Made by a program: the position numbers and the translations under genes. Source: a virus. Taken from it: 64,000 nt of DNA. Shown piece after piece: positions 3,001 through 57,843 of the stretch. Location: IMG/VR virus record IMGVR_UViG_3300030040_000144, positions 37,244 through 101,243 of that record. One strand, given 5' to 3'. The notes beneath the pieces were generated by a model. That model did not search any database, was not told where the DNA came from, and was given only the letters and a program-made list of their open reading frames with translations. The first letter of the stretch is position 1. Every line of letters starts with the position of its first letter.

Positions 3001-4250
3001 CCGTTACTGCCACGCTTATAGGCGGGAAAACCATTGCCGCTACGGTAGAACTGAAGCTTTTTAACCGCATCCCCAAACTGGGAGACTGGGCTTATTATAA
3101 TGGTGAGTTCGACTCTGTGCTTTACCCCGGCAAGAGGGTGATAGGATGGGTTTACAAGGTAACTCCGTATGCCGACCTTCCTACCGAGGTGCTTAACGAG
3201 TATCTGAAGAACGAAAAGATTTCAGCGCAGTACACCGTCGGAAAAACCATGTACGAGGTACTGATAGAAAACACCGAAGAAATTACCATCACCTCGTCTG
3301 ATAACGCCAATTCGTTCCGCGAACTTCCCTGGGGAATCTATCCGCAAGACACGGGCGAAGAAGGCTTTACGTCTGATGAGTGCAAGCCTATTGCCGAAGC
3401 TCTCTCCATATCGGAGATGGACCTTAAAAACATACCTGCGCTTAAAGACTGTACGCGCCGAGGTATGTACGATGAAGAAGGCAATGAAACCGCATATATA
3501 AAAGACGCTCACGCATACGATGACAGTCAGCCCGACGGTTTTAAAGTGTATGCAGCAAACGAAGCGCCGTCGCAGTGGAACGGACTGAAAGATACCGCGT
3601 CTATAGTGGCGCACGCCAACAACATTCTGGAACACTATGTGGGTGAAGGATTGCTTACCGACAGTGAAGGCCATACCATATTTGACTATCTGCCCGCAGG
3701 CCGCACGCACATATTACCACGTAACAACAAGGAACTGGCCGATCTGTGCGTAGCGTTAGGAAACATAGGCGGTCACGACCGCTGGCGGCAGTTGGCATAT
3801 CCCGCGGCATACTCGTGTATGTTATACGAACCCGAACTGAACGGCAAGCCAATAGAAGGTTTGTCCGAATGGTTCTCCCAAGGTCATTGGTACTTGTATG
3901 GCAGTGGCGATATGGTACGTCTATATATATTTTTCCGTAACAGCCGTGCACTTGCGCCTGCCGATGCCGGTACGCCTACTGCCGAGTTCTCTGATGAGGA
4001 TAACCCTTTGCGCCCCTTAGAGCCTACCGATGCCCGCCGCCCATGCTATGCCAACCTACAGAAGCGCGCGCAGACAGCAGGTCTTAGTTGTCCCGTCAGC
4101 AATCCTGCGCAGACTAACCGCTGGAGCAGCACTGAGTTCAGCAGCTACTACAGCTGGAACAGTAACTTCAGCAGCGGCAACATCTACGGCAACCACAAGT
4201 ACTACAGGTTTAGAGTCCGTCCCGTCGTCGCTTTTCCCTTTATTCTTTAG
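1..4250 (+). CDS. DGR target protein, 5'-partial. The frame is open back to the window start, and the track ORF 201..4250 begins at an internal GTG. A large tail or surface protein with leucine-rich-repeat-like central segments and a C-terminal variable region.
   Basis: No stop in frame from nt 3 to 4250. LxxLxL-type repeats occur around aa 700-800 (LQKLSLNG, LQTLDLRG, LTTLTLDG). The last ~45 aa (NRWSSTEFSSYYSWNSNFSSGNIYGNHKYYRFRVRPVV) are a diverged copy of the TR-encoded peptide 0.95 kb downstream. Confidence 0.8.
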   Translation, partial: AQGSTANTYWWNNEQSKLDKVTYRIHVLFLTLHAEFGWKPEKSNFTDEAAAAYPLYLNGEQIQGDAVATLSEAQKEKLEIDVPDGWIDGNGMYHGQFYTPQIGGAKATKVVNKINYASPMQSHKMGATRLYNDVMKAVCKDELPDWMTSNPAARFAVHEEGYYFFNQPEGEKEPIFVGFGTFGSGKCDKATWGYDKSKMFAFEGLNNNLPLCDFRVPADEDVTYNVGDESWVYNGIKSFEYSLGKTNDDGTPVAKNDALFRRYCNFIYAHDVRMQYFRGDRAAFDARYADVYDRATAVGATDADTQMLDEMQTTKYWLRDGDEAFHLLRFNYVTGKFVDAGTWTDTDGYKAGVRDLSTDPVTKAAYEAWKASEDVGDYENLNLRFRMAIAASFNEHCGKYLNKKNHQVHYNLVNYLFAGTDNCSKNTYYTIGITTGLCWLYQDDLDTIFKTDNNGRQTKVYFLSRYFDVQDTEAGLKKQKDYEGTASALFNVMEAAWETLDPTALPANMREVLTAMCTLVGANEELDGLTTTQRQTPYGCLHKYFFSTQKYFAESAWAEQQRIRYDWPASWGYESYGNQARGVLAVTQGIGDQLESEVQYMTRRLALVCSYAAWGDFSSGVNTGSTGLVDASAGLQFTPGSGRTGGEYTFDLVPHQFIYPCGVRDRALINPHFRMIPGQHYTFTVNPASTPIPGDSSVGLAATNYYRSIGNVGNMVVGNNNFTIQGRRMTEFVAEPKPGSSAFAPKQIDVDAANLQKLSLNGVSASSGTFNLSKATRLQTLDLRGTRYGQVRMPSSPQLTVARFGAELSQLEVRDMPQLTTLTLDGYSRLTQLTVLRCGSSTLPLVRGCSDAAARLSTLRIDAVAWIDVAPAVLSYLASVPTCDIQGRIAVTDGQNVDATLKLALLRKFGDIDSESNALYVTYSLRSVTGLNITTQRFVIAEAGDYPYQCSVLPSMANNFTDLRWSVSDNDFNVTVDPLTGVLHAPAVGEESNNPTATLTVTATLIGGKTIAATVELKLFNRIPKLGDWAYYNGEFDSVLYPGKRVIGWVYKVTPYADLPTEVLNEYLKNEKISAQYTVGKTMYEVLIENTEEITITSSDNANSFRELPWGIYPQDTGEEGFTSDECKPIAEALSISEMDLKNIPALKDCTRRGMYDEEGNETAYIKDAHAYDDSQPDGFKVYAANEAPSQWNGLKDTASIVAHANNILEHYVGEGLLTDSEGHTIFDYLPAGRTHILPRNNKELADLCVALGNIGGHDRWRQLAYPAAYSCMLYEPELNGKPIEGLSEWFSQGHWYLYGSGDMVRLYIFFRNSRALAPADAGTPTAEFSDEDNPLRPLEPTDARRPCYANLQKRAQTAGLSCPVSNPAQTNRWSSTEFSSYYSWNSNFSSGNIYGNHKYYRFRVRPVVAFPFIL
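4107..4233 (+). repeat. DGR variable repeat (VR), 127 bp, at the 3' end of the target gene
   Basis: 116/127 nt identical to 5055-5181. All 11 mismatches sit where the downstream copy has A (A->C, T, T, T, T, G, T, G, G, C, T). The 3' ~40 nt (IMH-like, GC-rich ...gtccgtcccgtcgtcgct) are identical. Confidence 0.9.
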
Positions 4251-35444: not shown

Positions 35445-38400
35445 ATGCTCTTTCACCCTATAATCAATCAGTTAGCCAATATAGACCTTACCTATTTGGT
35501 AAAGCCTGCTGATGAGCAGCACATTGAAGGACAGACGGCTTGTTTCTGTCCGTTTTGCTCAAAGAGTGCCGAAATATACGGTAGGGCTAAGAGTATGCAG
35601 ACTCCGCATTTCATTATATACAACAATGAACGTGGCGGTTTATATAATGGAGTAGGAGTAGACGATGACCGTTTGGCTATACATGGTGCGGTACACTGGA
35701 AGTGCACCGTAACCGGAAAACAGGGGTATGGGGCTATAGAACTATATGCCGCCATCCATGATATTCCCCCGTTCGGGGCTAACCTACTGCGTATATGCCG
35801 TGCGCTTACGGTAATGAAATATGGCGATACCGACGAGGTACATGCCGCTTTTCCTGAAGTGTTCGCACCGATGGACTACCGTACATGCGCAAATCAGACC
35901 ATTGGCACGTTTCTGTTTCAGCCCAAGACCGACTTCTCGCCGCAAGAACTTGCGGCACTTGGTTGCGAGGTTACACTTCAGAAAGGTTTGCCGGTGTTCG
36001 GCTTCGGCAGCGATTTCAGTACAAAGATGCTGAACGACGATTTCCGTATATTCTCACTCCTGAATGTGACACTGCCGGATGTTCTGCGCGACGGGCAGCA
36101 TGTAAGCGAGGTAATTCACGGCACACCGTGGAATCCGCTTTTTGTTTGTTTCGCTTCTGACGAGACCGGACCGCAAGGTTCTTACGGATGTATTTTCCGC
36201 CCCGCGATAACTGCCGACCCCATTGTTTTTTCTACCGACGAAGAGCATAGCGTGCGCAAGGTGAGCAAGTGGCTCATGGGAGACAATGTATTTGTCTACG
36301 CCATGAATCACCGCGGAACCGGCAATACCGCCGTACATGCTGCTATACAGCGTTTCTGTCCCGACGAGGAATATACCATCACCAAGGAAGAGTGGGTGGA
36401 AAAAGAAGACAAGGACGGAAACCCCAAAGGCACTTTCAAGATGATAGAAACCGAGATACCGGCAGCTGAAATCAAGGCACGGAACATCGTTTTCTGCCGC
36501 ACCCCTGAGGATGCTCTTAGCGTGTACTATGCCATGCGCAGCCTGCGCCTTGACAAGAGTGATGTCGACGAGCACTTTGCGCATCACTGCTGGTATCACG
36601 TGGCTTTCGCCCTGGGTAGACGCAATTTTTGGTATATAGAGCGCGGGGAATGGCGACAGGAAAAACTCGACTTTAGCGGAGTGCAGTTTCAGAAGATGAA
36701 ACGCTTTGCGGAACGTGTAATCATGCTTTACCCAAATGATATAGCCAGCCAGCGTGATTGCGGCTCTATTGTAACCAAGTTTACGGAGCTGCATTATGCC
36801 ATGCTTCCTGAAGCTTTTCATTGCGCCTACTGTAAGCGTTGGAAATGGCTTTACGGCGGCACACCAAGGTCGGTAAGAGACTATATGTTATCGTACCGCA
36901 TGACTGTTGATGATAACTTCCGTTTCGATCACGACATACGCATACCGCTTTACTCGCGTCTGCGCGGAGCGAAAGATGCCGATCCGTTCGAGATAGAATA
37001 CCCTCGCGACCCCCGAAGCGGTAAGCCTAAAGCGCCCACATGCAAGGTGTCGCCTACTAAGGTATGGCTCTTTATGACCGCACACGGTTATTACCGCATG
37101 ATAGACCCCGAGAGTACCGACCTTGTAGGACAGTTCATCCACCTCGACCGTTGTTTTGTAGAGTATATAGATGCAAAGAGTATCATGCAGGCGGTAAAAA
37201 CTCTGCTCATGCAGTACATAGAGCAGAGCTGGCGACACTCTGACAATGAGCGCCGCCTGATGTCGGACTGCGCGAACCTTATAGACAAGACATTCACGGA
37301 AAAATCGGCTGGCGGCTTGCAGGGCATGGTAATAAACTTTGCCGATGCCTTTAATGCGAAGACGGAATATTTTTACTTCCGCAACGTAGCACTAAAGATA
37401 ACGCCCGACAGCATCCGCGCCGTGTCTTACGATGATATAAACTTCTTCATCCCGTCTCTCGCCAAGAAACCGTACGATTTTACCATGCGTCAGTTCAAAA
37501 CGCCGTTCGCCATTTTTGAGCGACCGGAGTACCGTGAGCGTCTTGATGCGATAAACAAGAAAGAGGCGATGAGAAACGAAGACGGATCTCCGGCTTATTC
37601 TTACGACGAGATTAAGCAACTGCGCGGCGAGCTTATGGAGTGGGCCCAGACTTACCGTTGGGATGTGGATTGGTTTGGCCAGAGCGAACAAGACCTTTGG
37701 CCGATACTGCGTATAGTGCGTGGCTTCTCTAATGTGTTGTGGGAACGCGAGAAAGAGGCGCAGCGAAACAAAGAACCTCTTACTGCCGAAGAGAAAGCCA
37801 TAATGAATGCGCACTTTGCCAATATGCTTTCATGTATAGGCCGCTTGTGCTTTCGCTCATGGGAAGGAATGCAGAATATTGCTCCCTATCTGCTTGAAGA
37901 CAACATAGCCGATGAAAAACAAGCAGCGGGAGGTAGCGGAAAATCGGTGTTGGTAAATACCGTGGTAGGTGCGGCGGTGAATGTACTATCAGTAGACATG
38001 AAAGATTTCATGATAGTAACCGATGCAAAATTTTCATTGACAGACCTTTTGCTTTATCCTGGCAAATACCGCGTGGTACATTGGGAAGATAAACAGAAGA
38101 GCTTTCCTATGAACTACTTCTACAATAAGGTCACTAAAGGGACCAAGGTTGAAAAAAAGTTTGGTGACCCGATAAATCTGAAGATGAACGAATCACCTAT
38201 TCACGCGATAACGAGTAATAGCCCGTTGAGCGATGACGACCCGTCTACGTTAGGCCGTTTTCCGTTGGTAAGTTTCTCCGACCGCTTTGCGCGAGAGAAT
38301 CAGCAGAAAAGACAACCTGCGCGTTCGCCGGCAGAACTGATGAAGCATTTCGATCCAAACCCTGAAAAGCTTACCGATACCGATCGCAATCAGGCTATTT

Positions 38401-49625: not shown

Positions 49626-51420
49626 CGTTGTGATAAGAGGGCACTGAAAAAGTAATCACTATTCAGAGTTCTCTGAGGATTATATGAAAAATATAGAGTT
49701 CGTCAACTCCTTATCCGAGGACTTGACGAACTCTGATTTTTATCGATAGGTAGGTTATATGACTCTGTATTGACTCTAATCAGCCATGTGCAGCCTTATT
49801 CTGGGATAATGATGAGCAGTCCTCAGCTCAGTTTGAGGATTCTTTTTATATTTGCAACAAAAATCACCATTGCCCCTTGCATACGCATACAGTCCAGACC
49901 ATACGAGTCTGCACGGTCGTATCCAAATACATTCTTCAATTCTGCGTTTTTGGCCTCGATTTTATATCGGATTTTAGCCTTTGTCTTGAACTCCTCTGTT
50001 TGTTCAAAGTCGGCTTGCTGCAGATGCTCTCCCGATTTAATCTGCACGGCATAAGACTTGCTTTTGGCCCCTTCTTTATAACATCCGTTCCGCCGTGAAC
50101 ATGTTCTGCATTTCTCTACATCAAAGTAGAAGACAAGTGACTGGTTCTGTTTCTCTCCCTTCTTTCCCTGTCGCGCTTTTCTTATCGCCATATGCCCGGC
50201 CGGACAAACATACATTCCGGCATCCTTGTTATAATCAAAACGGTCTTCTTCCTTACGCGTGCCATTGCTGATTGTCGGATTTAATCTGGCAACCAGCTCA
50301 AAACCATTTTCTTTGTCATTTGAAAGTATTATGTTGTCTTTGCCCGAGTACGCAGTGTCGCCGACTACTGTATCAACGACCATGCCGTTGGTGCGGCTCT
50401 GCTCTACAAGTTCCTGAAGCTGGGGGCCGTCCCCTTTCTCTCCGGAGGTGACTGTCGCAGCCGTTATGATGCGTTCATCACTCATTGCGATATGGGTCTT
50501 ATATCCGAAGAAAGAGGCATCCTTACTCTTGTGCCCAATCCTGGCATCCTCGTCCTTGGACGTTACATAATGGTCTTCAATATCTGAAAGTACCTCCTTA
50601 AGCATGTTAAGACGCTCCTTGATTTTAGGAACTTCTGCAAGACAGGGATTGGAACCTACGACATTCAGCAGATTTTTGGTGTAGTCAAGCTCATGTTCCA
50701 GATTATCATCCGTGTTCTTTTCAGGAAGAGTATTTTTGATAGTCTCGTCTGATTCATACAGACATTTGCGCAACTGTTTTGAGCGAAGCCGCAATATCTC
50801 AACCGGGGAATAAGGATTGCTTCGTGAGCCGGTGTGGGTGGCATCAACGATTATAGTACGTGATTTGATTATTCCTTTTTCAATTGCAATCTCAACGGTT
50901 TTGCCAATCAGAAGATTCAACAGGGCCTTGTCTTTTAGTCTAAGCTTACGGAACTTACACAGAGAACTGGGATTTATCAGGTCCGTGTTTTCTGGACTCA
51001 TCCCAAGAAAATACTTGAAAGACATATCATAACGGGACCTCTCTACAACATCAACATCGGATATGTCATAAATTGTCTTCAGAAGAAGATATTTGAACAT
51101 CATTACAGGGCTTTCAGCCATGCGGCCATTGTCATGGCAGTATTTATCCATAAGTTCTTTTTGGATGAAGGAGAAGTCCACAAGGTCATTAATCCTGCGC
51201 AGAACATTATCGCTAGGAATAATCAAATCGTATAAATCACTGTAATTGCTGAATTGTATTGTCTGTTGAGTCGGGAGCATTTCTTTGTGTGTTATATCTA
51301 TAAAGATACGCAAAAATCGGCATATATCCAAAATGTTTATTGGGTATATGCCGATTATATCAGACAATTATCCTATGAAAGGACTTTTTCAGTGCCCTCT
51401 TGTGATAACGTCCGTTTTTT
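49626..51420. mobile_element. IS1182/IS5-like insertion sequence
   Basis: Terminal inverted repeats of ~38 bp: aaaaaacgg[c/a]cgtt[g/a]t[g/c]a[t/c]aagagggcactgaaaaagt at 49626-49663, and its reverse complement at 51383-51420. They bracket a single DDE transposase gene. Confidence 0.7.
49823..51367 (-). CDS. DDE transposase (IS1182/IS5-like family)
   Basis: 514 aa. N-terminal ...DLVDFSFIQKELMDKYCHDNGRMAESPVMMFKYLLLKTIYDISD... is typical of IS1182-type transposases. Confidence 0.7.
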   Translation of the reverse strand: MSDIIGIYPINILDICRFLRIFIDITHKEMLPTQQTIQFSNYSDLYDLIIPSDNVLRRINDLVDFSFIQKELMDKYCHDNGRMAESPVMMFKYLLLKTIYDISDVDVVERSRYDMSFKYFLGMSPENTDLINPSSLCKFRKLRLKDKALLNLLIGKTVEIAIEKGIIKSRTIIVDATHTGSRSNPYSPVEILRLRSKQLRKCLYESDETIKNTLPEKNTDDNLEHELDYTKNLLNVVGSNPCLAEVPKIKERLNMLKEVLSDIEDHYVTSKDEDARIGHKSKDASFFGYKTHIAMSDERIITAATVTSGEKGDGPQLQELVEQSRTNGMVVDTVVGDTAYSGKDNIILSNDKENGFELVARLNPTISNGTRKEEDRFDYNKDAGMYVCPAGHMAIRKARQGKKGEKQNQSLVFYFDVEKCRTCSRRNGCYKEGAKSKSYAVQIKSGEHLQQADFEQTEEFKTKAKIRYKIEAKNAELKNVFGYDRADSYGLDCMRMQGAMVIFVANIKRILKLS

Positions 51421-51438: not shown

Positions 51439-53433
51439 CTATCTTCCGTTAGGCATTACGAAACAGTAGCCGCCGCATCTGAACAGCTTGCAACCCAGAT
51501 AAAGCGTGTCGAAGGCATCGGTAAAGTCGGTTCTCTGCTGAAGAGGAAGCGTATCTTCGCTTTCCGGCTTTTTTTCCTGACTCTTGTCTTTCTGAAATCC
51601 CTTATACGAAATTTTCACCTCGCACAGCTGCATGGCTATGATAAGGTCGGCATTGTTCTGCTGGTTTATGCGGATAGCCGGAAACGACAGATGAGCCAGA
51701 GCGTCGTTTATGATTTTATGCTTCAGGTCGTGCCGCTCCGGTGCTCCCATGTCTATGCCCGTAACCGCCCATCCGTACCGCTCTAATTCCTGCATCACCG
51801 TCATGTAGAAGCGTTCGTCGGTGCTGGCGTACGACGCGCCCTGCTTTGCCGTAGCGTCATAGAAATACGTCACGTCTCGGTTGATGGAACGCTTCGGGGC
51901 GTAGTATGCCGAAAAGTCGGCTATAAGCTCACGCAGCTTGCGCTCGTTCTTCACGTAGAAACTCTTTATCACGTTAAGACACTCCATCCCGTCGCGCTCA
52001 TATATCTGCCCGACCACAAGCGTGTTGATGTTAGCGTTATAGTCGAGGGCTATATATAAAGGAAGGGAGTTGATGCAGTCGGCATCCATGCGGCAGTCGT
52101 TGCGCTCCGACAGTTCCTTGAAGTCGGGCTGATAACTCTCTGACGTGATTTCCCGTCCACCGATGATGCCTGACACCTTTTGCGTAGTGAATTTGGCGGA
52201 CGACAGAGGGTCTATCTCGTCGGGAATATAACCGTGCACGTGGTCTATATCGAGGTTAGAGTAAAAGCCGTCGTTGCTCTTCTGCATTTTCATGTTGAGA
52301 ATCGAGACCATGAAGGTGTAGTTCGGAAGATCTCTGCGCATGTCTCTTATGTAACTCTCAGTCAGAAGGTCCACATTGTCGAGGGTTGACGCGCGGCGCA
52401 CGCAGAAAGCCACACGGCGCAGCTCACGCAGATAGCCGTCAGAGAACTTCTTTGAGCGAAGAAACATCTGCATCTCAAAGTCCTCTTCGGGCGTGATAAG
52501 ATACTCGTGATCATAAACCAGCTCGGCATCGTCCTGCGGAATGAGTTTATAGTTGACAGCCATCTCTACCATGCCTTTTGTAACGTGCCGCCCGTGGTTG
52601 GGCATCATCTTGAACTGCCCCTCGTGTTTCATCATCTTCAGCGCCACGGCACGTATCATGGTGCGCAGTTCGGGCGGAACCACGTGTACGGAGTGTCCCG
52701 TTTTCCGAGCGTTGTACAGAAGGTCGTTGTAGCGTATCACCTTGTCGGCATACTCTTCGAGCTGCTGCTGCACCCAGCGGTAGGTTTTCCCTTTGAAGCG
52801 TCCTGTTTCTATCTCCAAGTCGAGTTTCTCTTCTTCCTTCTCCAACCACGAGCCTTTGGCCGTGAGCGATGCGTCCGAAAGAAAACGTGTTGACTTGTAC
52901 AGCGGATTATGATCCGTAAAGTTGATGTCGCCCAATGGGTGCGTCTGGCCCGAAAGTGCCGGCATCAGTTCGTCCGTCACCTTCTTGTACGGAAAGAAAC
53001 GGGCTTCGTCGCCTACCATGGCTGAGAAGGTGTAACTGTTAGCGCTGGCGGTCTGCGATAGCGAAATGAGTACCCAGCCCGCACCGTTGGCGAACCAAAT
53101 GTAATTATCGTAGTTCTTAGGCTTGAATATACTCTCGCGGGCATGTTTGGGCGGCCGCCCCCATCCGAAGTGCACGCCCTGCGTAAAGCCGAACATGCGC
53201 TCCATAGCCGCCATAGTGCTCGGAATGGTCTTACCGAAGCCCTGCTGACGGCTTACCGCCACCCACGCTCCCAGCATACCGGGCATGGAGTTCGAAGCCA
53301 TCCACACGTACGGGGCCACAAGTCCGTCGGTCTTACCCACACGGCGTGCGGCTATCACTCGTTCGTCCTTCGCCCCCATGTACAGCGACTGCTGCTGAAA
53401 TTTGGTAAGGTATATGTCGTGTGCTTTTTGCAT
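51439..53433 (-). CDS. terL: Terminase large subunit
   Basis: 664 aa. Walker A AARRVGKT and Walker B MVGDEARF in the N-terminal ATPase. The C-terminal half is Asp-rich and nuclease-like. Confidence 0.6.
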   Translation of the reverse strand: MQKAHDIYLTKFQQQSLYMGAKDERVIAARRVGKTDGLVAPYVWMASNSMPGMLGAWVAVSRQQGFGKTIPSTMAAMERMFGFTQGVHFGWGRPPKHARESIFKPKNYDNYIWFANGAGWVLISLSQTASANSYTFSAMVGDEARFFPYKKVTDELMPALSGQTHPLGDINFTDHNPLYKSTRFLSDASLTAKGSWLEKEEEKLDLEIETGRFKGKTYRWVQQQLEEYADKVIRYNDLLYNARKTGHSVHVVPPELRTMIRAVALKMMKHEGQFKMMPNHGRHVTKGMVEMAVNYKLIPQDDAELVYDHEYLITPEEDFEMQMFLRSKKFSDGYLRELRRVAFCVRRASTLDNVDLLTESYIRDMRRDLPNYTFMVSILNMKMQKSNDGFYSNLDIDHVHGYIPDEIDPLSSAKFTTQKVSGIIGGREITSESYQPDFKELSERNDCRMDADCINSLPLYIALDYNANINTLVVGQIYERDGMECLNVIKSFYVKNERKLRELIADFSAYYAPKRSINRDVTYFYDATAKQGASYASTDERFYMTVMQELERYGWAVTGIDMGAPERHDLKHKIINDALAHLSFPAIRINQQNNADLIIAMQLCEVKISYKGFQKDKSQEKKPESEDTLPLQQRTDFTDAFDTLYLGCKLFRCGGYCFVMPNGR

Positions 53434-53504
53434 TGTAGTATAGTTTAGTCGTGTTCGTGTAGTGTTATCCTGATTTCCGTGTGTGCCTTATGTGCGCCGC
53501 TCCG

Positions 53505-53726
53505 TTATTTGTGCCGATGGCCTACGTGCCACTTCTGACATGTATGGCATCGGTACACGGTGTAGCCTTCGGCACGCAGCCGCGGGTTTTGTTGCAGAAA
53601 CTCCCACGCCGCATCTTCCGTGTCGTACGGAGCCTTGGCTTTCCACGAGCGTTGCTTGCGTGTGTAATGTTCAGAATCCGGTTTGAATGGCGGCACCTTG
53701 TTGAAGTATTTGTGTCTGTTGTTCAT
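53505..53726 (-). CDS. Small zinc-ribbon protein
   Basis: 73 aa, ...YRCHTCQKWHVGHRHK. Confidence 0.3.
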   Translation of the reverse strand: MNNRHKYFNKVPPFKPDSEHYTRKQRSWKAKAPYDTEDAAWEFLQQNPRLRAEGYTVYRCHTCQKWHVGHRHK

Positions 53727-53741
53727 GTTTTTTTTGTGCGT

Positions 53742-54807
53742 TTAGAATAGTGTTGTCTGTATGGCTCTGTTTCCTCGTTCTGCTTGATGCCGTGGCACGT
53801 ATATTCGCTCGGTTACAAGGTTATTTGCCGTGGCGCTCAGAGTAGAGCGGTGAGCGAACTCTTCTATGCAGATAAAACGGTCGTCTGGCATACGGTACGA
53901 TGAAATGAATACGGGTTCCGTCTGGCGTTCGCACCATCGGTAGAAACGTTCATAATCGAAGCCTTCCGCCTTGTCGTATACGTTTGTTCCTTCATACGGG
54001 ATGTCGCAGTATATCACGCTGTCCTCGGGTATGCTGACCTCTTCGTAGTCAAGCACAGAGGAAGTGATGGGCAAAATCTCTCCCCCCCTCTCGTATATCT
54101 GGGCAGACTGTGCTGTCGTTCTCTGTACTGCAAGCGAGGCGACTGAGTTTCGTCTCTCGCAGTTGGGGAGTTCTCCGCTTCGATTTTTTTTTTTGAAAGA
54201 CAGCTCTCGTTCGCCATCTTTCCATTTGCATTGAGGCAAGTCGGGCAGTGCGGTTGAATGATTCCTGCTGCATCCGTTGATTCTCCCCCCCCCCCTCAAA
54301 CGATTGCTGTCGGAAGTGTCCCAACTTACTGAAGTAGTGCTTCACTGCGAGGTATCGCTTCTGCAGGTCTTGTATGGGGTCGATGAACGAGAGGTTGTGG
54401 CCGAGTTCTTTACCAAGCGAATAGTCGCCGAAGAACATGGCGTAGTGTATGGCTTTCTTTAGCGGCTCTATCTCACGCGAATAGAGATAGTCGCGCAGAT
54501 TGTTGCCGAACGACCACACCACCGCGACATACGGGTCAGTGTCCTTCAGCCGGAAGAAGTCCTCTCGGCTAATCCATCGGCTTTCGTCGTTGTATTTGCC
54601 GTTCAGCGCGTCGATGAAGAGCGTGGGACACATCCAGTTAATATCGTTTATATGTATATGCTCATATTTATCCATGAGCAGTGCCGCATGGCTCACGGCA
54701 CAGCCGCCGCAGAACAAATCTATGAGATGTTTTTTTCGTGGCAACAGCCGCACTATGCGCTCTGCCAGCTTGTTCTTGCTTCCCTTGTAAGGTAATCCGT
54801 ATTTCAT
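53742..54807 (-). pseudogene. Dam-like N6-adenine DNA methyltransferase, split across frames at homopolymers (G11 and A11 on the coding strand). Frameshifted, possibly phase-variable.
   Basis: ORF 54049-54807 carries motif I (KYGLPYKGSKNKL...LIDLFCGGCAV). ORF 53742-54299, in another frame, carries motif IV (VIYCDIPY). A C11 run (~54285-54295) and a T11 run (~54184-54194) on the + strand lie between the motifs. Confidence 0.55.
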
Positions 54808-54869
54808 TCTTTTTTTTATGGTGTTGGTGTGTGTTTGTAGTTATGTATCATCAAGCGGCGGCATCGGGG

Positions 54870-55524
54870 CTAGTTAAACCACTTTACTATGGTTTCGCCT
54901 TTGTAGCCCTTCTCCCAAACGAACCATGCGTATGCCGCCGCACTGCTGCTTACGGAGCTGAAATCTCCGTTCATGGCGCATTTAAGCCGGGACGAGCTTA
55001 CCCATACCCTAATGGGGGGGGGTAGTTTTGAACAGACGGCGGCGACTCTTCCCTTCAAGAAAGGTGAGTTTTAAGAACATCGCCACCTTTTTGTCCGCAG
55101 GAATGATGCTCAGTGCTTTTTCCACAAACTCTTGGGCGAATTTGTAGGGTGGGTTGGTTACGATGTTACCATCCCACGCTAAGTTGTCTATGGCGAGGAA
55201 ATCTGCTACCGTGCCGTAGCCTCTGTCTATCAGGTCCCGGCTTTCCACTTCGTAGCCGTACGCTTTAAGTACCTCGCTTATGTGACCCTCGCCGCACGAC
55301 GGTTCGAGTATTTTGCCTTCAAACCGCTCCAGGCGGCAGAGCCATTCGGTAGCCTTCGGTTCTGTGGCGTAGTAGTCGTCTTGCTCACGCTCACGGTCGG
55401 AGTGGTTGCTCGCCCCGAGTGTGGCGAAAACGGCGGTGCGTCCGCCCGTCCAGCATTTAGCCACGGTGCACCTCCTTTCCTTTTTGTCTGTTGCCGGAGT
55501 CGGCCGCGTGGCGCAGCTCGTCAA
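54870..55524 (-). pseudogene. Second N6-adenine (NPPY) methyltransferase. The reading frame stops at a G9 homopolymer and the C-terminal ~48 aa continue in the -1 frame.
   Basis: ILEPSCGEGHI (motif I) and IVTNPPY (motif IV), then ...KTTPPH-stop at the 55014-55022 G-run. With G8 the frame reads through to ...YAWFVWEKGYKGETIVKWFN (ORF 54870-55058). Confidence 0.5.
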
Positions 55525-55714
55525 GCGTGGGATAGTCAGCGCACGGCATCAGAGGGTCTTCGTCGGTTATCATGAAGTGTATCTGAGTGTCACGATAACC
55601 CAATTCATGCAGCATGGCGTAAACCTCTTCCGTGCTGCGGTTCTTTGTTTCGTTGTTGGCATCGTATATAATGGAGACGGTGCCGTTGCTGTAGTCTAAG
55701 ATTGATATGTACAT
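55457..55714 (-). CDS. Hypothetical small protein
   Basis: Start MYISILDYSNGTVSI.... It lies just downstream of the repeat arrays and overlaps the 5' extension of the methyltransferase ORF. Confidence 0.3.
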   Translation of the reverse strand: MYISILDYSNGTVSIIYDANNETKNRSTEEVYAMLHELGYRDTQIHFMITDEDPLMPCADYPTLDELRHAADSGNRQKGKEVHRG

Positions 55715-55744
55715 GTGTATTCGTTTTATGTTATACTTATTGTT

Positions 55745-55870
55745 TTTTTTAAACAATGCCCATTGTTTGACTATAACTATGCCCATTGTTGTATGTAAAC
55801 AATGCCCATTGTTTACATAAGGTTATGCCTATTACTTTGATAAGGTTATGCCTATTACCTTGGTAAGGTT
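55745..55870. repeat. Two direct-repeat arrays: 3x aacaatgcccattgtt (palindromic arms) and 3x aaggttat[g/a]cctattac
   Basis: Copies at ~55745, 55770 and 55798, and at ~55820, 55840 and 55860. Regular spacing of about 20-28 nt in the intergenic region of the minus-strand late operon. Confidence 0.55.
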
Positions 55871-55882
55871 ATACCTATTACC

Positions 55883-56902
55883 TCATATTCCGTACTTTCT
55901 CAGATACTCCTCACATCTGAATCCCTTTCTCGGCGTGAAATCCTTAAAATCGGTAGTGCAGAAAATCATTCGCTTATTGCACCATTTTGCCATATCTTTC
56001 TGCCATTCGGGGATTGTGCGGTTTGGATTTGTCGGGTCGCGGTAAGGTTGAGCGTAAGCATAGACGGCTCTGCCTTCGTGACTCTTGCGAAAACTTTGCA
56101 GGCGTTCCCACCAATAATGCAGTCGATGGTAGCACTCCTTGAAATTGTTCTTGCCGCCAATCATCGTGTATAGGGAATACTCGCCACGAAATCCAGCAGC
56201 GTTGATGAGCTGCATGGCGCGTTCACATTCCGCTATCTGTGCCGTGGTATCGCAGCCGAAACGTATGCGCGAGTCTATCCATTTCACTTTGCCCAACAGT
56301 TCGGCATATTCGGGAGTAACCAACCGTGCGTCCATTGCCTGGTTGAAGTCGATATGCAGACCGAGGTCGATTATCTTCTGAAGCTGCTCCTTGGCATAGT
56401 CGCCCGCCGCAAGAATGTTGTTATCCATCAGCACAACATGCGTGCGCCCCTCGATGGCTATCTCTTCAATATCCATGTAGGGACGTATGTACCCTTCCTT
56501 CTTCGGAACGACACACCAGAAGCATTTGTTAGGGCATCCCTCGGTCAGTTTGCCTACGGCTTGATTTTTCGGTAGCCAAGGGTACATCGTGTAAAGAGGC
56601 TGTAGTTTGTCTATCTCGTCGGGCAGACGCTTGCAGATGTCGTAGCCCGTGCCGCCCTTCTCCAGCCGGTCGTAAGAAAACTGACTGAAGTCTATATCGG
56701 GCGAGAAATTAAACACCTTACTGGCATACAGTATGTCGTAATGATGTCTGTCGAACAGGTTGGCGGGTTGCGCCCACTCTACAGCATCGCCCTGCATGGC
56801 GTGCCAACGTGCAATCTTACCGAGGGCTACGTTGGGATATATCGTTGCGCCCCATTTCTTTTTGCCGTGTCGCCCGTCTACATCTAACAGTCCTATCCTC
56901 AT
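55883..56902 (-). CDS. Radical SAM domain protein (CX3CX2C)
   Basis: 339 aa. TEGCPNKCFWCVVP gives a C-x3-C-x2-C cluster at aa ~121-128. Adjacent to the two DNA methyltransferase genes. Confidence 0.45.
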   Translation of the reverse strand: MRIGLLDVDGRHGKKKWGATIYPNVALGKIARWHAMQGDAVEWAQPANLFDRHHYDILYASKVFNFSPDIDFSQFSYDRLEKGGTGYDICKRLPDEIDKLQPLYTMYPWLPKNQAVGKLTEGCPNKCFWCVVPKKEGYIRPYMDIEEIAIEGRTHVVLMDNNILAAGDYAKEQLQKIIDLGLHIDFNQAMDARLVTPEYAELLGKVKWIDSRIRFGCDTTAQIAECERAMQLINAAGFRGEYSLYTMIGGKNNFKECYHRLHYWWERLQSFRKSHEGRAVYAYAQPYRDPTNPNRTIPEWQKDMAKWCNKRMIFCTTDFKDFTPRKGFRCEEYLRKYGI

Positions 56903-57666
56903 ACTCCGTCCTCCGCTCTTTCTTCGGCTTCGTCTTCTTCCGTCATGTATTCCACGTAGTCCGGCTCGTCCTCCGTGTCGGCGGCGGGAACTCCCAGCAT
57001 CGATTCTTCTTCCATGTCTTGAAGGTCTTTCGTGGTGAGTCCGTACTTGCGCTTCATGCGCTCCTTCTCCTCATCGGTATAGTTCACGCGGTCGCGCTTC
57101 ACTATGCTCACATCCTGCGTAATGGCAATGCGGCTCATGTCCGGCATTTCGTCCGTAGCGTCGCGCTGCTCGTCGAAATCCTTGTATACCTTAGCCAACG
57201 CCTCCATGCCCTTCGCCACGGCACGGTCGTTGTTCTGCTGTTTACCCGTGCGGATAAGCCACTCTGCCGAACCGAGGAACATAGCCTTGTGGCGCGGACT
57301 CTCGTCGGTCTGGAAGAAGCGTATCAGGTGGTTGCACACCAGCACGTCGTTGTTCAGCTCCGTTACGGTGCGCGGCATCACGTTTCCTTCCTTGTCAATG
57401 GTGATGCGCAGGGCGTGCACCATTTCCATAGCCTCGCGGTTTCCCTGTCCTGCCTGGCGGAAGAACAGCTCGTAGTCGCGTCGGGCTATGTTGCGGCACG
57501 TTACGCGCGGATCGATGTCGCGGTTCTGTAGCCATCTCTTGTAAAATTCGCTGCACATCTGCATACGGTATCGCTGCTCCGGCTTGGGGAAGGCGTGCTC
57601 TATGCCCGTCCCTAATGTGAGCCACTTGTCGATGCGTGCCAGCGTGTTTTCTGTTATTCCTGACAT
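56899..57666 (-). CDS. Hypothetical protein with a highly acidic C-terminus
   Basis: 255 aa. C-terminal EDEPDYVEYMTEEDEAEERAEDGV. Confidence 0.3.
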   Translation of the reverse strand: MSGITENTLARIDKWLTLGTGIEHAFPKPEQRYRMQMCSEFYKRWLQNRDIDPRVTCRNIARRDYELFFRQAGQGNREAMEMVHALRITIDKEGNVMPRTVTELNNDVLVCNHLIRFFQTDESPRHKAMFLGSAEWLIRTGKQQNNDRAVAKGMEALAKVYKDFDEQRDATDEMPDMSRIAITQDVSIVKRDRVNYTDEEKERMKRKYGLTTKDLQDMEEESMLGVPAADTEDEPDYVEYMTEEDEAEERAEDGV

Positions 57667-57843
57667 ATATCATCTGTTTTTTGGTTCTTTGTTTCTTTTA
57701 CGCCGAAGTTATGATAAAAGATTTTCTCCATACGGACATCCCTCCGTCCTCCGTATGTCCGTACCTCCCCGCGGACATTGCCTACATTTGCCTAAAACAT
57801 AAAACAACATTCTTATCACTAACCAAAAAAAACACGAACAGAA

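Follow-up and report, generated by a model that had tools for sequence, protein, structure and literature searches.

Phase-variable DNA methyltransferases and phasevarions are known from Type III mod, Type I hsd and Type IIG genes of bacteria including Haemophilus, Neisseria, Helicobacter, Moraxella and Campylobacter, where repeats within an open reading frame (ORF) switch the methyltransferase by frameshift and tract lengths differ among close isolates. These are chromosomal restriction–modification genes whose switching reprograms host expression, and a shift out of frame normally meets a stop codon soon after a single tract. The present analysis concerns two adjacent methyltransferase genes in a 64,000-nucleotide stretch of viral DNA (IMG/VR record IMGVR_UViG_3300030040_000144, positions 37,244 to 101,243; the whole stretch is referred to as the window) from an uncultured gut phage of ~100 kb with related contigs of ~95–105 kb, in which a Dam-like methyltransferase and a smaller second methyltransferase are each frameshifted at homopolymeric tracts. 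Comparison with related genomes indicates that both genes are probably phage simple-sequence contingency loci that toggle DNA methylation. In contrast to the bacterial cases, these are orphan methylases in a lytic-looking phage genome, they would most likely act on the DNA of the phage itself, and the Dam-like gene is divided by a multi-tract, stop-free linker, of which we know no example among bacterial phase-variable methylases. The term phasevarion, which denotes a regulon under the control of a phase-variable methylase, is not applied to the present locus.

In phage T2, the A9 tract of agt is a contingency locus in a DNA-modification gene, where ON and OFF states trade sensitivity to restriction systems targeting modified DNA against sensitivity to those targeting unmodified DNA (Gomez, Barrick & Waters, bioRxiv 10.1101/2025.10.21.683753). 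Poly-G tracts cited in that preprint come from Campylobacter Fletchervirus phages, where they lie in receptor-binding genes (Sorensen 2021), and from Bordetella phage BPP-1, where they were noted in a methylase gene and left unstudied (Liu 2004). The present locus resembles T2 agt in its proposed homopolymer slippage within a phage ORF, its reversible frameshift and its DNA-modification product, but differs in that the enzyme is a predicted orphan Dam-like N6-methyladenine (m6A) methylase of an uncultured gut phage; in carrying long G/C runs of 9–12 nt, several per gene, rather than A9; and in possessing a dedicated three-frame-open linker conserved across a large family. Contingency loci of this kind are already known; literature searches returned no description of a conserved, three-frame-open, multi-tract linker cassette in an orphan phage methylase, or of its spread among gut phages.

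Organisation of the two methyltransferase genes

The features of both genes are given below by window coordinates.

53742..54807, minus strand: Dam-like (D12-class) orphan N6-adenine DNA methyltransferase gene, predicted; ATG at 54807, stop at 53742; out of frame (OFF) in the window
54296..54807, minus strand: N-terminal S-adenosylmethionine (SAM)-binding half, with motif I FCGGCAV and part of the target-recognition region (Pfam PF02086)
54730..54736, minus strand: A7 tract (PRKKH) in the N-terminal half; A6 in relatives L067 and L075, breaking their N-terminus
54075..54295, minus strand: linker, or switch cassette, of ~220 nt, bounded and divided by three tracts; zero stops in any frame
54285..54295, minus strand: G1 tract, G11 on the coding strand (C11 on the plus strand); the most variable, with G9, G10, G11 and G12 in near-identical genomes
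54184..54194, minus strand: A11 tract encoding KKK (T11 on the plus strand); A12 or A13 in slightly diverged relatives
54082..54088, minus strand: G2 tract, G7, just 5' of the catalytic half; G10 in L067 and L075, G5–G12 across relatives
53742..54074, minus strand: C-terminal catalytic half, LPITSSVLDYEE...VIYCDIPY, with DPPY-type motif IV; intact and conserved, in a frame different from that of the N-terminal half
54870..55464, minus strand: second, small methyltransferase gene, motif I EPSCGEG, motif IV TNPPY, PHROG 799; GTG start at 55464; frameshifted (OFF)
55014..55022, minus strand: C9 tract on the coding strand (G9 on the plus strand), over Thr-Pro-Pro codons; C7, C8, C9 or C10 in near-identical genomes

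The N-terminal half of the Dam-like gene carries KGSK...FCGGCAV (motif I) in a frame that passes unbroken through G11, A11 and G7 and ends at a TGA at 54049–54051, giving a 252-aa ORF, and VIYCDIPY is read in another frame, as a preliminary description of this DNA had stated. That description took the G11 and A11 runs as the points of interruption; both runs are present at the positions listed, although A11 causes no break itself, and a third tract, G7, has to be added. A single −1 change in any one of the three tracts restores the gene, whose in-frame product is 354 aa long when the tract lengths total 28 (modulo 3); the window, at G11 + A11 + G7 = 29, is one nucleotide too long and hence OFF. 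Of the four Lys codons 5' of the tract in the window gene, one is AAA and three are AAG, so the pure A and G runs look unlike a by-product of codon usage.

The N-terminal half matches PF02086 over residues 7–58 only (44.6 bits against a gathering cut-off of 22), and in the in-frame protein FCGGCAV (residues 32–38) and YCDIPY (residues 266–271) are both invariant in the homologue alignment, with motif IV reading DIPY instead of DPPY. The TIGR00571 (dam) profile is not reached (42.2 bits against a curated cut-off of 114.85), so that GATC specificity cannot be claimed for the enzyme, and matches to profiles of Protein Data Bank (PDB) structures are weak (E ~1e-3; 1q0s, 1yfj). From the PF02086 match and the two motifs the product is predicted to be a member of the D12-class (PF02086) N6-adenine methyltransferase family. 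It resembles the D12-class, alpha-type Dam enzymes of T4 and E. coli (PDB 1q0s, 1yfj) in its N-terminal motif region and in the order of SAM-binding half followed by DPPY-type motif, but differs from them in a disordered insert of 70–150 residues between the halves, in its DIPY motif and in scoring under the TIGR00571 cut-off.

The second gene matches the PHROG 799 'DNA methyltransferase' profile (E=7e-66, residues 5–198), with no family assigned in Pfam and NCBIfam scans; EPSCGEG and TNPPY are invariant among its homologues, which when intact are 197 aa long and always have Pro-Pro where the tract lies. The gene had been described as ending at a G9 run, and it does end immediately after the tract, at a TAG two codons on (55009–55011), with the run reading C9 on the coding strand. 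The conserved C-terminus (...YAWFVWEKGYKGE...) resumes in the +1 frame and continues to 54870. C8 (ACC CCC CCC) is the in-frame state, window C9 being one too many, and the expectation that a −1 change would restore the C-terminus is borne out by a C8 relative that encodes the intact protein (L081, below).

Five G/C runs of at least 7 nt occur in the window, three of them inside the two methylase genes, which occupy ~2.7% of its length, and both of its only two 11-mers lie in the Dam-like gene, against an expectation for independent and identically distributed bases of ~0.01–0.03 runs of at least 11 nt per base type. Homopolymer clustering in the two genes exceeds chance. Two runs elsewhere, previously given as C8 near 19490 and C9 near 39187, are actually C7 (19487–19493) and C8 (39188–39195).

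Tract-length variation among near-identical genomes

Strain-level relatives (~11) were retrieved through exact matches to neighbouring proteins, all of them short-read assemblies (MEGAHIT, SPAdes, Logan) from other samples; an exact 28-mer from the window linker had no match in IMG/VR. Substitutions relative to the window are followed below by the C tract of the second gene and the G1, A and G2 tracts of the Dam-like gene.

Window: reference; C9, G11, A11, G7; both genes OFF
L083: 0/6000; C9, G11, A11, G7; same as the window, out-of-frame lengths included
L073: 0/7330; C9, G10, A11, G7; Dam-like gene intact, 354 aa
L085: 0/4774; C9, G12, A11, G7
L069: 0/5968; C7, G12, A11, G7
L070 and L076 (two contigs, one sample): 0; C7, G9, A11, G7
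L086 (Hadza sample): 2/4150; C10, G12, A11, G7
L067: 3/4027; C9, G9, A12, G10; N-terminal A7 to A6
L068: 28; C7, G9, A11, G7
L075: 81; C10, G9, A12, G10; N-terminal A7 to A6
L074: 344; C10, G9, A13, G2 not determined; Dam-like gene intact, 353 aa
L081: 15/1014; C8, –, –, –; second gene intact, 197 aa

Indels in the genomes with zero substitutions and in L067 are confined to the tracts, the four indels of L067 all falling in homopolymers of the Dam-like gene, where the A7 at 54730–54736 is also length-variable among relatives. Offsets from the window of −2, −1, +1 and +3 occur among these assemblies; four A/T 8-mers lying with the tracts in one 7 kb stretch (53728–53735, 54810–54817, 55743–55750 and 57825–57832) show zero length variation among the strain-level relatives. 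The tract-length polymorphism is far above the background mutation level, and tract lengths are heritably hypervariable; the C tract of the second gene, at C7–C10, is clearly hypermutable. ON and OFF alleles occur in one genomic background, G10 versus G11 and C8 versus C9 setting intact against truncated products, with 8/10 strain-level copies of the Dam-like gene and 11/12 of the second gene OFF. ON and OFF states are interleaved among pairs 99.8–100% identical, which, with the equal dN/dS of the downstream domain in OFF and ON alleles (below), is indirect, comparative evidence of the reversibility expected of a contingency locus.

The preliminary description had weighed phase variation against homopolymer sequencing errors and had pointed to tract lengths in related metagenomes as informative. 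Those lengths (G9–G12 and C7–C10 in near-identical genomes) favour the former, as near-identical short-read assemblies differ at the tracts and in-frame G10 and C8 alleles exist, and speak against the latter, as short-read assemblies are mostly out of frame and one of them (L083) equals the window over 6,000 nt.

Several short contigs end in or close to the tracts: L079 breaks off within the C tract, L080 stops 3 nt short of it, and L088 begins 6 nt past G1. Such breaks are suggestive of local heterogeneity, which they fit without proving it. Two further contigs from different samples and assemblers (L071 and L072) both begin at 54128, in the linker and 40 nt upstream of G7; the assembly-graph paths of coexisting linker variants may merge there.

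A stop-free linker across the homologue family

More than 4,000 homologues of the Dam-like protein were identified, many on contigs of ~95–105 kb and nearly all with a precomputed PF02086 assignment. Their N- and C-terminal domains are ~90–100% conserved; the region from 'QQSFEGG' to 'GGQ.LPIT' is hypervariable in both length and sequence. Loci were collected by the N-terminal domain alone (66 from IMG/VR and 15 from metagenome-assembled genomes, MAGs), a sampling unbiased towards intact genes. Among 31 relatives the linker spans 183–451 nt and contains 2–6 tracts (G5–G19, A8–A14), and an A tract of 8–14 is found in all linker-bearing relatives, including a ~65%-identical clade in which C tracts and an A tract replace the G/A pattern. 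A 305-aa sister clade without linker or tracts (L029–L041) is always in frame (ON). Distinct loci comprise 17 ON and 31 OFF (~35% ON, 17/48), and close pairs flip state through the tracts, as do L016 and L017, 99.88% identical, by a change in one tract (G8 versus G7), and L018 and L022 (A9/G8 versus A10/G9).

Stop triplets are strongly depleted in the linker, with 19 in 8,291 nt over the 31 loci (0.23 per 100 nt) versus 4.48 and 3.28 per 100 nt in the flanking N and C domains. A composition-preserving shuffle gives an expectation of 421 ± 15 stops versus 48 observed in that comparison, most of the latter being one TGA just 5' of the first tract; the 220-nt window linker is free of stop codons in every frame. 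Among 120 intact homologues, all three frames are used to translate the stretch from the A tract to the last G tract, as '...VASLAI..AQSAQ...' in 42, '...CIACNTES...' in 44 and '...RLQYRERQHSLP...' in 18, and the two intact strain-level alleles, L073 and L074, exhibit alternative linker frames inside the window's own lineage. An AlphaFold model gave pLDDT ~70–89 for the N- and C-terminal halves and ~25 for residues 167–252, by which the linker is predicted to be disordered; the model was built from a 14-sequence alignment, whose shallowness explains the low mean pLDDT of 58, and serves solely to set the ordered domains apart from the disordered linker.

Outer domains and cassette alike are under selection. 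From codon alignments with dS of ~0.7–0.95, dN/dS in the N domain is 0.047 for both ON–ON and OFF–OFF comparisons, and in the C domain 0.096 for ON–ON and 0.122 for OFF–OFF, with the C-domain ORF intact to its normal stop in every OFF allele. Conservation of the C domain in OFF alleles implies that the frameshifted half has been translated often enough over evolutionary time to remain under strong purifying selection, and on this evidence the OFF Dam-like alleles do not appear to be pseudogenes.

Two classes of atypical linker were encountered. L014 (~3570–3572; gene nt 570) and L015 (~3588–3590; gene nt 588) carry different single substitutions, TGG>TGA and GGA>TGA, each placing a TGA in the linker frame as the sole linker change from the in-frame allele of L009 and L011; these are either independent knock-outs or stops bypassable via the flanking tracts. 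In L005 and L095 the whole linker is gone and a single G8 joins the halves out of frame (nt ~3512–3530 of each locus), which suggests deletion by recombination between G tracts. Stop-codon recoding, considered on account of the in-frame TGA codons of L014 and L015, was rejected: reading TGA, TAG or TAA as sense lengthens no large window ORF, and recoding, being unable to repair either frameshift, is no explanation. The phage uses the standard genetic code.

Proposed mechanism and alternative explanations

Slipped-strand mispairing during phage DNA replication would alter tract lengths and thereby bring the catalytic part of either enzyme into the reading frame or take it out. For the Dam-like enzyme the switch would be an unstructured multi-tract linker, inserted between the SAM-binding and DPPY halves and kept stop-free in three frames, with ON or OFF set by G1 + A + G2 modulo 3; the second gene would be ON at C8. 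Because only the summed tract length modulo 3 counts, any tract can make up for a shift at another, which in a stop-free linker would raise the rate of OFF-to-ON switching; ON alleles differ in their linker peptide. Replication slippage would yield mixed ON and OFF progeny, and enzyme present in the infected cell would methylate the entire burst, so that virion methylation would mirror the allele of the parent. Lineages with and without methylation may in this way hedge between hosts cutting unmethylated and hosts cutting methylated DNA, a bet-hedging logic that is the one shown experimentally for T2 agt. A bolder proposal, to which we give a little less than an even chance, is that the Dam-like linker is an evolved, modular 'frame-agnostic' cassette, disordered, kept translatable in three frames by selection and seeded with several hypermutable tracts, whose state sums several slippage counters and through which thousands of gut phage genomes make methylation stochastic.

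Certain observations weigh against the contingency-locus explanation. An ON fraction of ~35% is the expectation for a random frame, and so gives no sign of net DNA-level selection for ON; the A tract is universal among linker-bearing relatives yet stable in the zero-substitution genomes, which suits a role at the RNA level at least equally. The C tract of the second gene is lineage-specific: most relatives have interrupted codons at this site (ACG CAG CCA CCT; ACC CCA CCC) and are ON, from which the tract would be a recently formed hotspot, and one relative with an uninterrupted C7 (L025) is OFF. With 11/12 strain copies OFF as well, the second gene may be a recent mutational hotspot or in early decay rather than an evolved switch; a contingency locus that is still young, or a gene being lost, would fit equally.

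Runs of at least nine A or T are classical sites of transcriptional slippage, as in Thermus dnaX, transposases of insertion sequence (IS) elements and poly-A genes of Buchnera, and slippage of RNA polymerase or the ribosome on A11–A14 and the long G tracts, with every genotype giving some full-length enzyme, is the main rival or complement to DNA-level switching, though unlikely to be the principal explanation. DNA tract lengths would then drift nearly neutrally and act as a rheostat at most, which would accommodate the A tract of 8–14 in all linker-bearing relatives, an in-frame DNA fraction of about one third alongside a strongly purified C domain in OFF alleles, and a linker open in three frames on both sides of the A tract, exactly as needed. 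The locus shares with programmed transcriptional slippage a conserved A tract of at least nine inside an ORF (A11 in the window, A8–A14 in relatives), flanked on either side by open frames, an arrangement that allows the frame to be corrected in the RNA; in those systems, however, the DNA tract is fixed, whereas here the tracts vary between near-identical genomes, a DNA-level variation that is real and large. The second methylase, moreover, has only C9 and no open alternative path, with a stop two codons later. DNA variation would alter product yield under RNA slippage too, so that the two mechanisms are not exclusive. Separate synthesis of the halves of a split enzyme was considered and rejected: the 110-aa C-terminal 'gene' called in some assemblies has as its start codon the TTG for Leu in the conserved LPITSS, and fused ON forms are abundant.

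Decay of dispensable methylases into pseudogenes, with homopolymers the first to break, would account for the predominance of OFF alleles among strain-level copies, for the independent TGA nonsense mutations of L014 and L015, and for the out-of-frame linker losses of L005 and L095. It is nevertheless very unlikely for the pair of genes, given dN/dS of ~0.05–0.12, equal in OFF and ON; the lack of any stop or indel in the conserved domains of OFF alleles; the restriction of indels to the tracts; the persistence of tracts and stop-free linker at dS of ~0.7–0.9; and the interleaving of ON and OFF among near-identical genomes. For the second methylase alone, decay is perhaps a possibility of some substance, if still a minority one. 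That both genes are truly intact and misread is extremely improbable: long homopolymers are error-prone on all platforms, and the short contigs L079, L080 and L088 end in or beside tracts, but 11 independent short-read assemblies from three assemblers give mostly out-of-frame lengths, differences reach 3 nt (G7 versus G10, G9 versus G12), and window ORFs of 1,166–1,349 aa with many 5–7-mers are intact. Differences of 2–3 nt over several assemblers, with the exact replication of the window state over 6 kb, rule out homopolymer miscalling, and errors could not create a linker stop-free in three frames with homologues reading all three. Reversible switching at the DNA level is the probable explanation, to which slippage in RNA may contribute.

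Phage context and neighbouring genes

Among deposited phages the present one lacks a close relative: megablast of 53400–56000 against INPHARED phages returned no match, and matches to the terminase are only 26–31% identical. A PHROGs scan gave no crAss-like signal. Five of eight close MAG matches were binned as Prevotella, Prevotellaceae or Bacteroidetes, only a weak hint as to the host. GATC is rare in the window (62 observed versus 175 expected; observed/expected 0.35), with only CTAG lower (0.12), and several 6-bp palindromes are nearly absent (observed/expected counts: GATATC 0/13, ATGCAT 0/11, CTCGAG 0/9, CTGCAG 2/21). This scarcity looks like restriction-site avoidance and fits a phage under restriction pressure, but does not identify the targets of the methylases.

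Just upstream of the methylases and in the same orientation (55883–57666, minus strand) lie genes for a radical-SAM protein (PHROG 9298, E=4e-85) and a 255-aa protein of unknown family, which may form a larger DNA-modification module with the two methylase genes. In the intergenic region at 55732–55881, between the radical-SAM gene and a 109-aa gene upstream of the methylases, a 23-nt unit (ATGCCCATTGT... / ATGCCTATTAC...) recurs ~6–7 times in an array that has inverted repeats within it; L075 lacks exactly one unit (55840–55862). The array, of iteron-like or operator type, probably controls the methylase operon. A DDE transposase gene (49823–51367, minus strand; DUF772 and DDE_Tnp_1, E ~1e-15 to 1e-17) is located directly downstream of the terminase gene, and the L083 and L087 contigs both end within it at ~50034, as expected of a repeated IS element in a phage genome.

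Implications for gut phages

Gene callers split such genes or label them as pseudogenes, biasing estimates of phage methylase content and predictions of host range, and polishing that 'fixes' frameshifts at these tracts in an assembly would remove a genuine biological signal. The signature of the cassette, comprising several tracts, a linker stop-free in all frames and a state set by the sum modulo 3, is searchable in other genes and viromes. If the bolder proposal above is true, selection for three-frame translatability within a phase-variation device would be documented here for the first time, and the cassette would represent a bet-hedging system widespread among gut phages, probably those of Prevotella. 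Experimental demonstration of contingency loci in phages is recent and comes from the T-even group; the present locus suggests that uncultured phages of the human gut commonly follow the same strategy, which would there act on DNA methylation, the mark that most restriction systems read.

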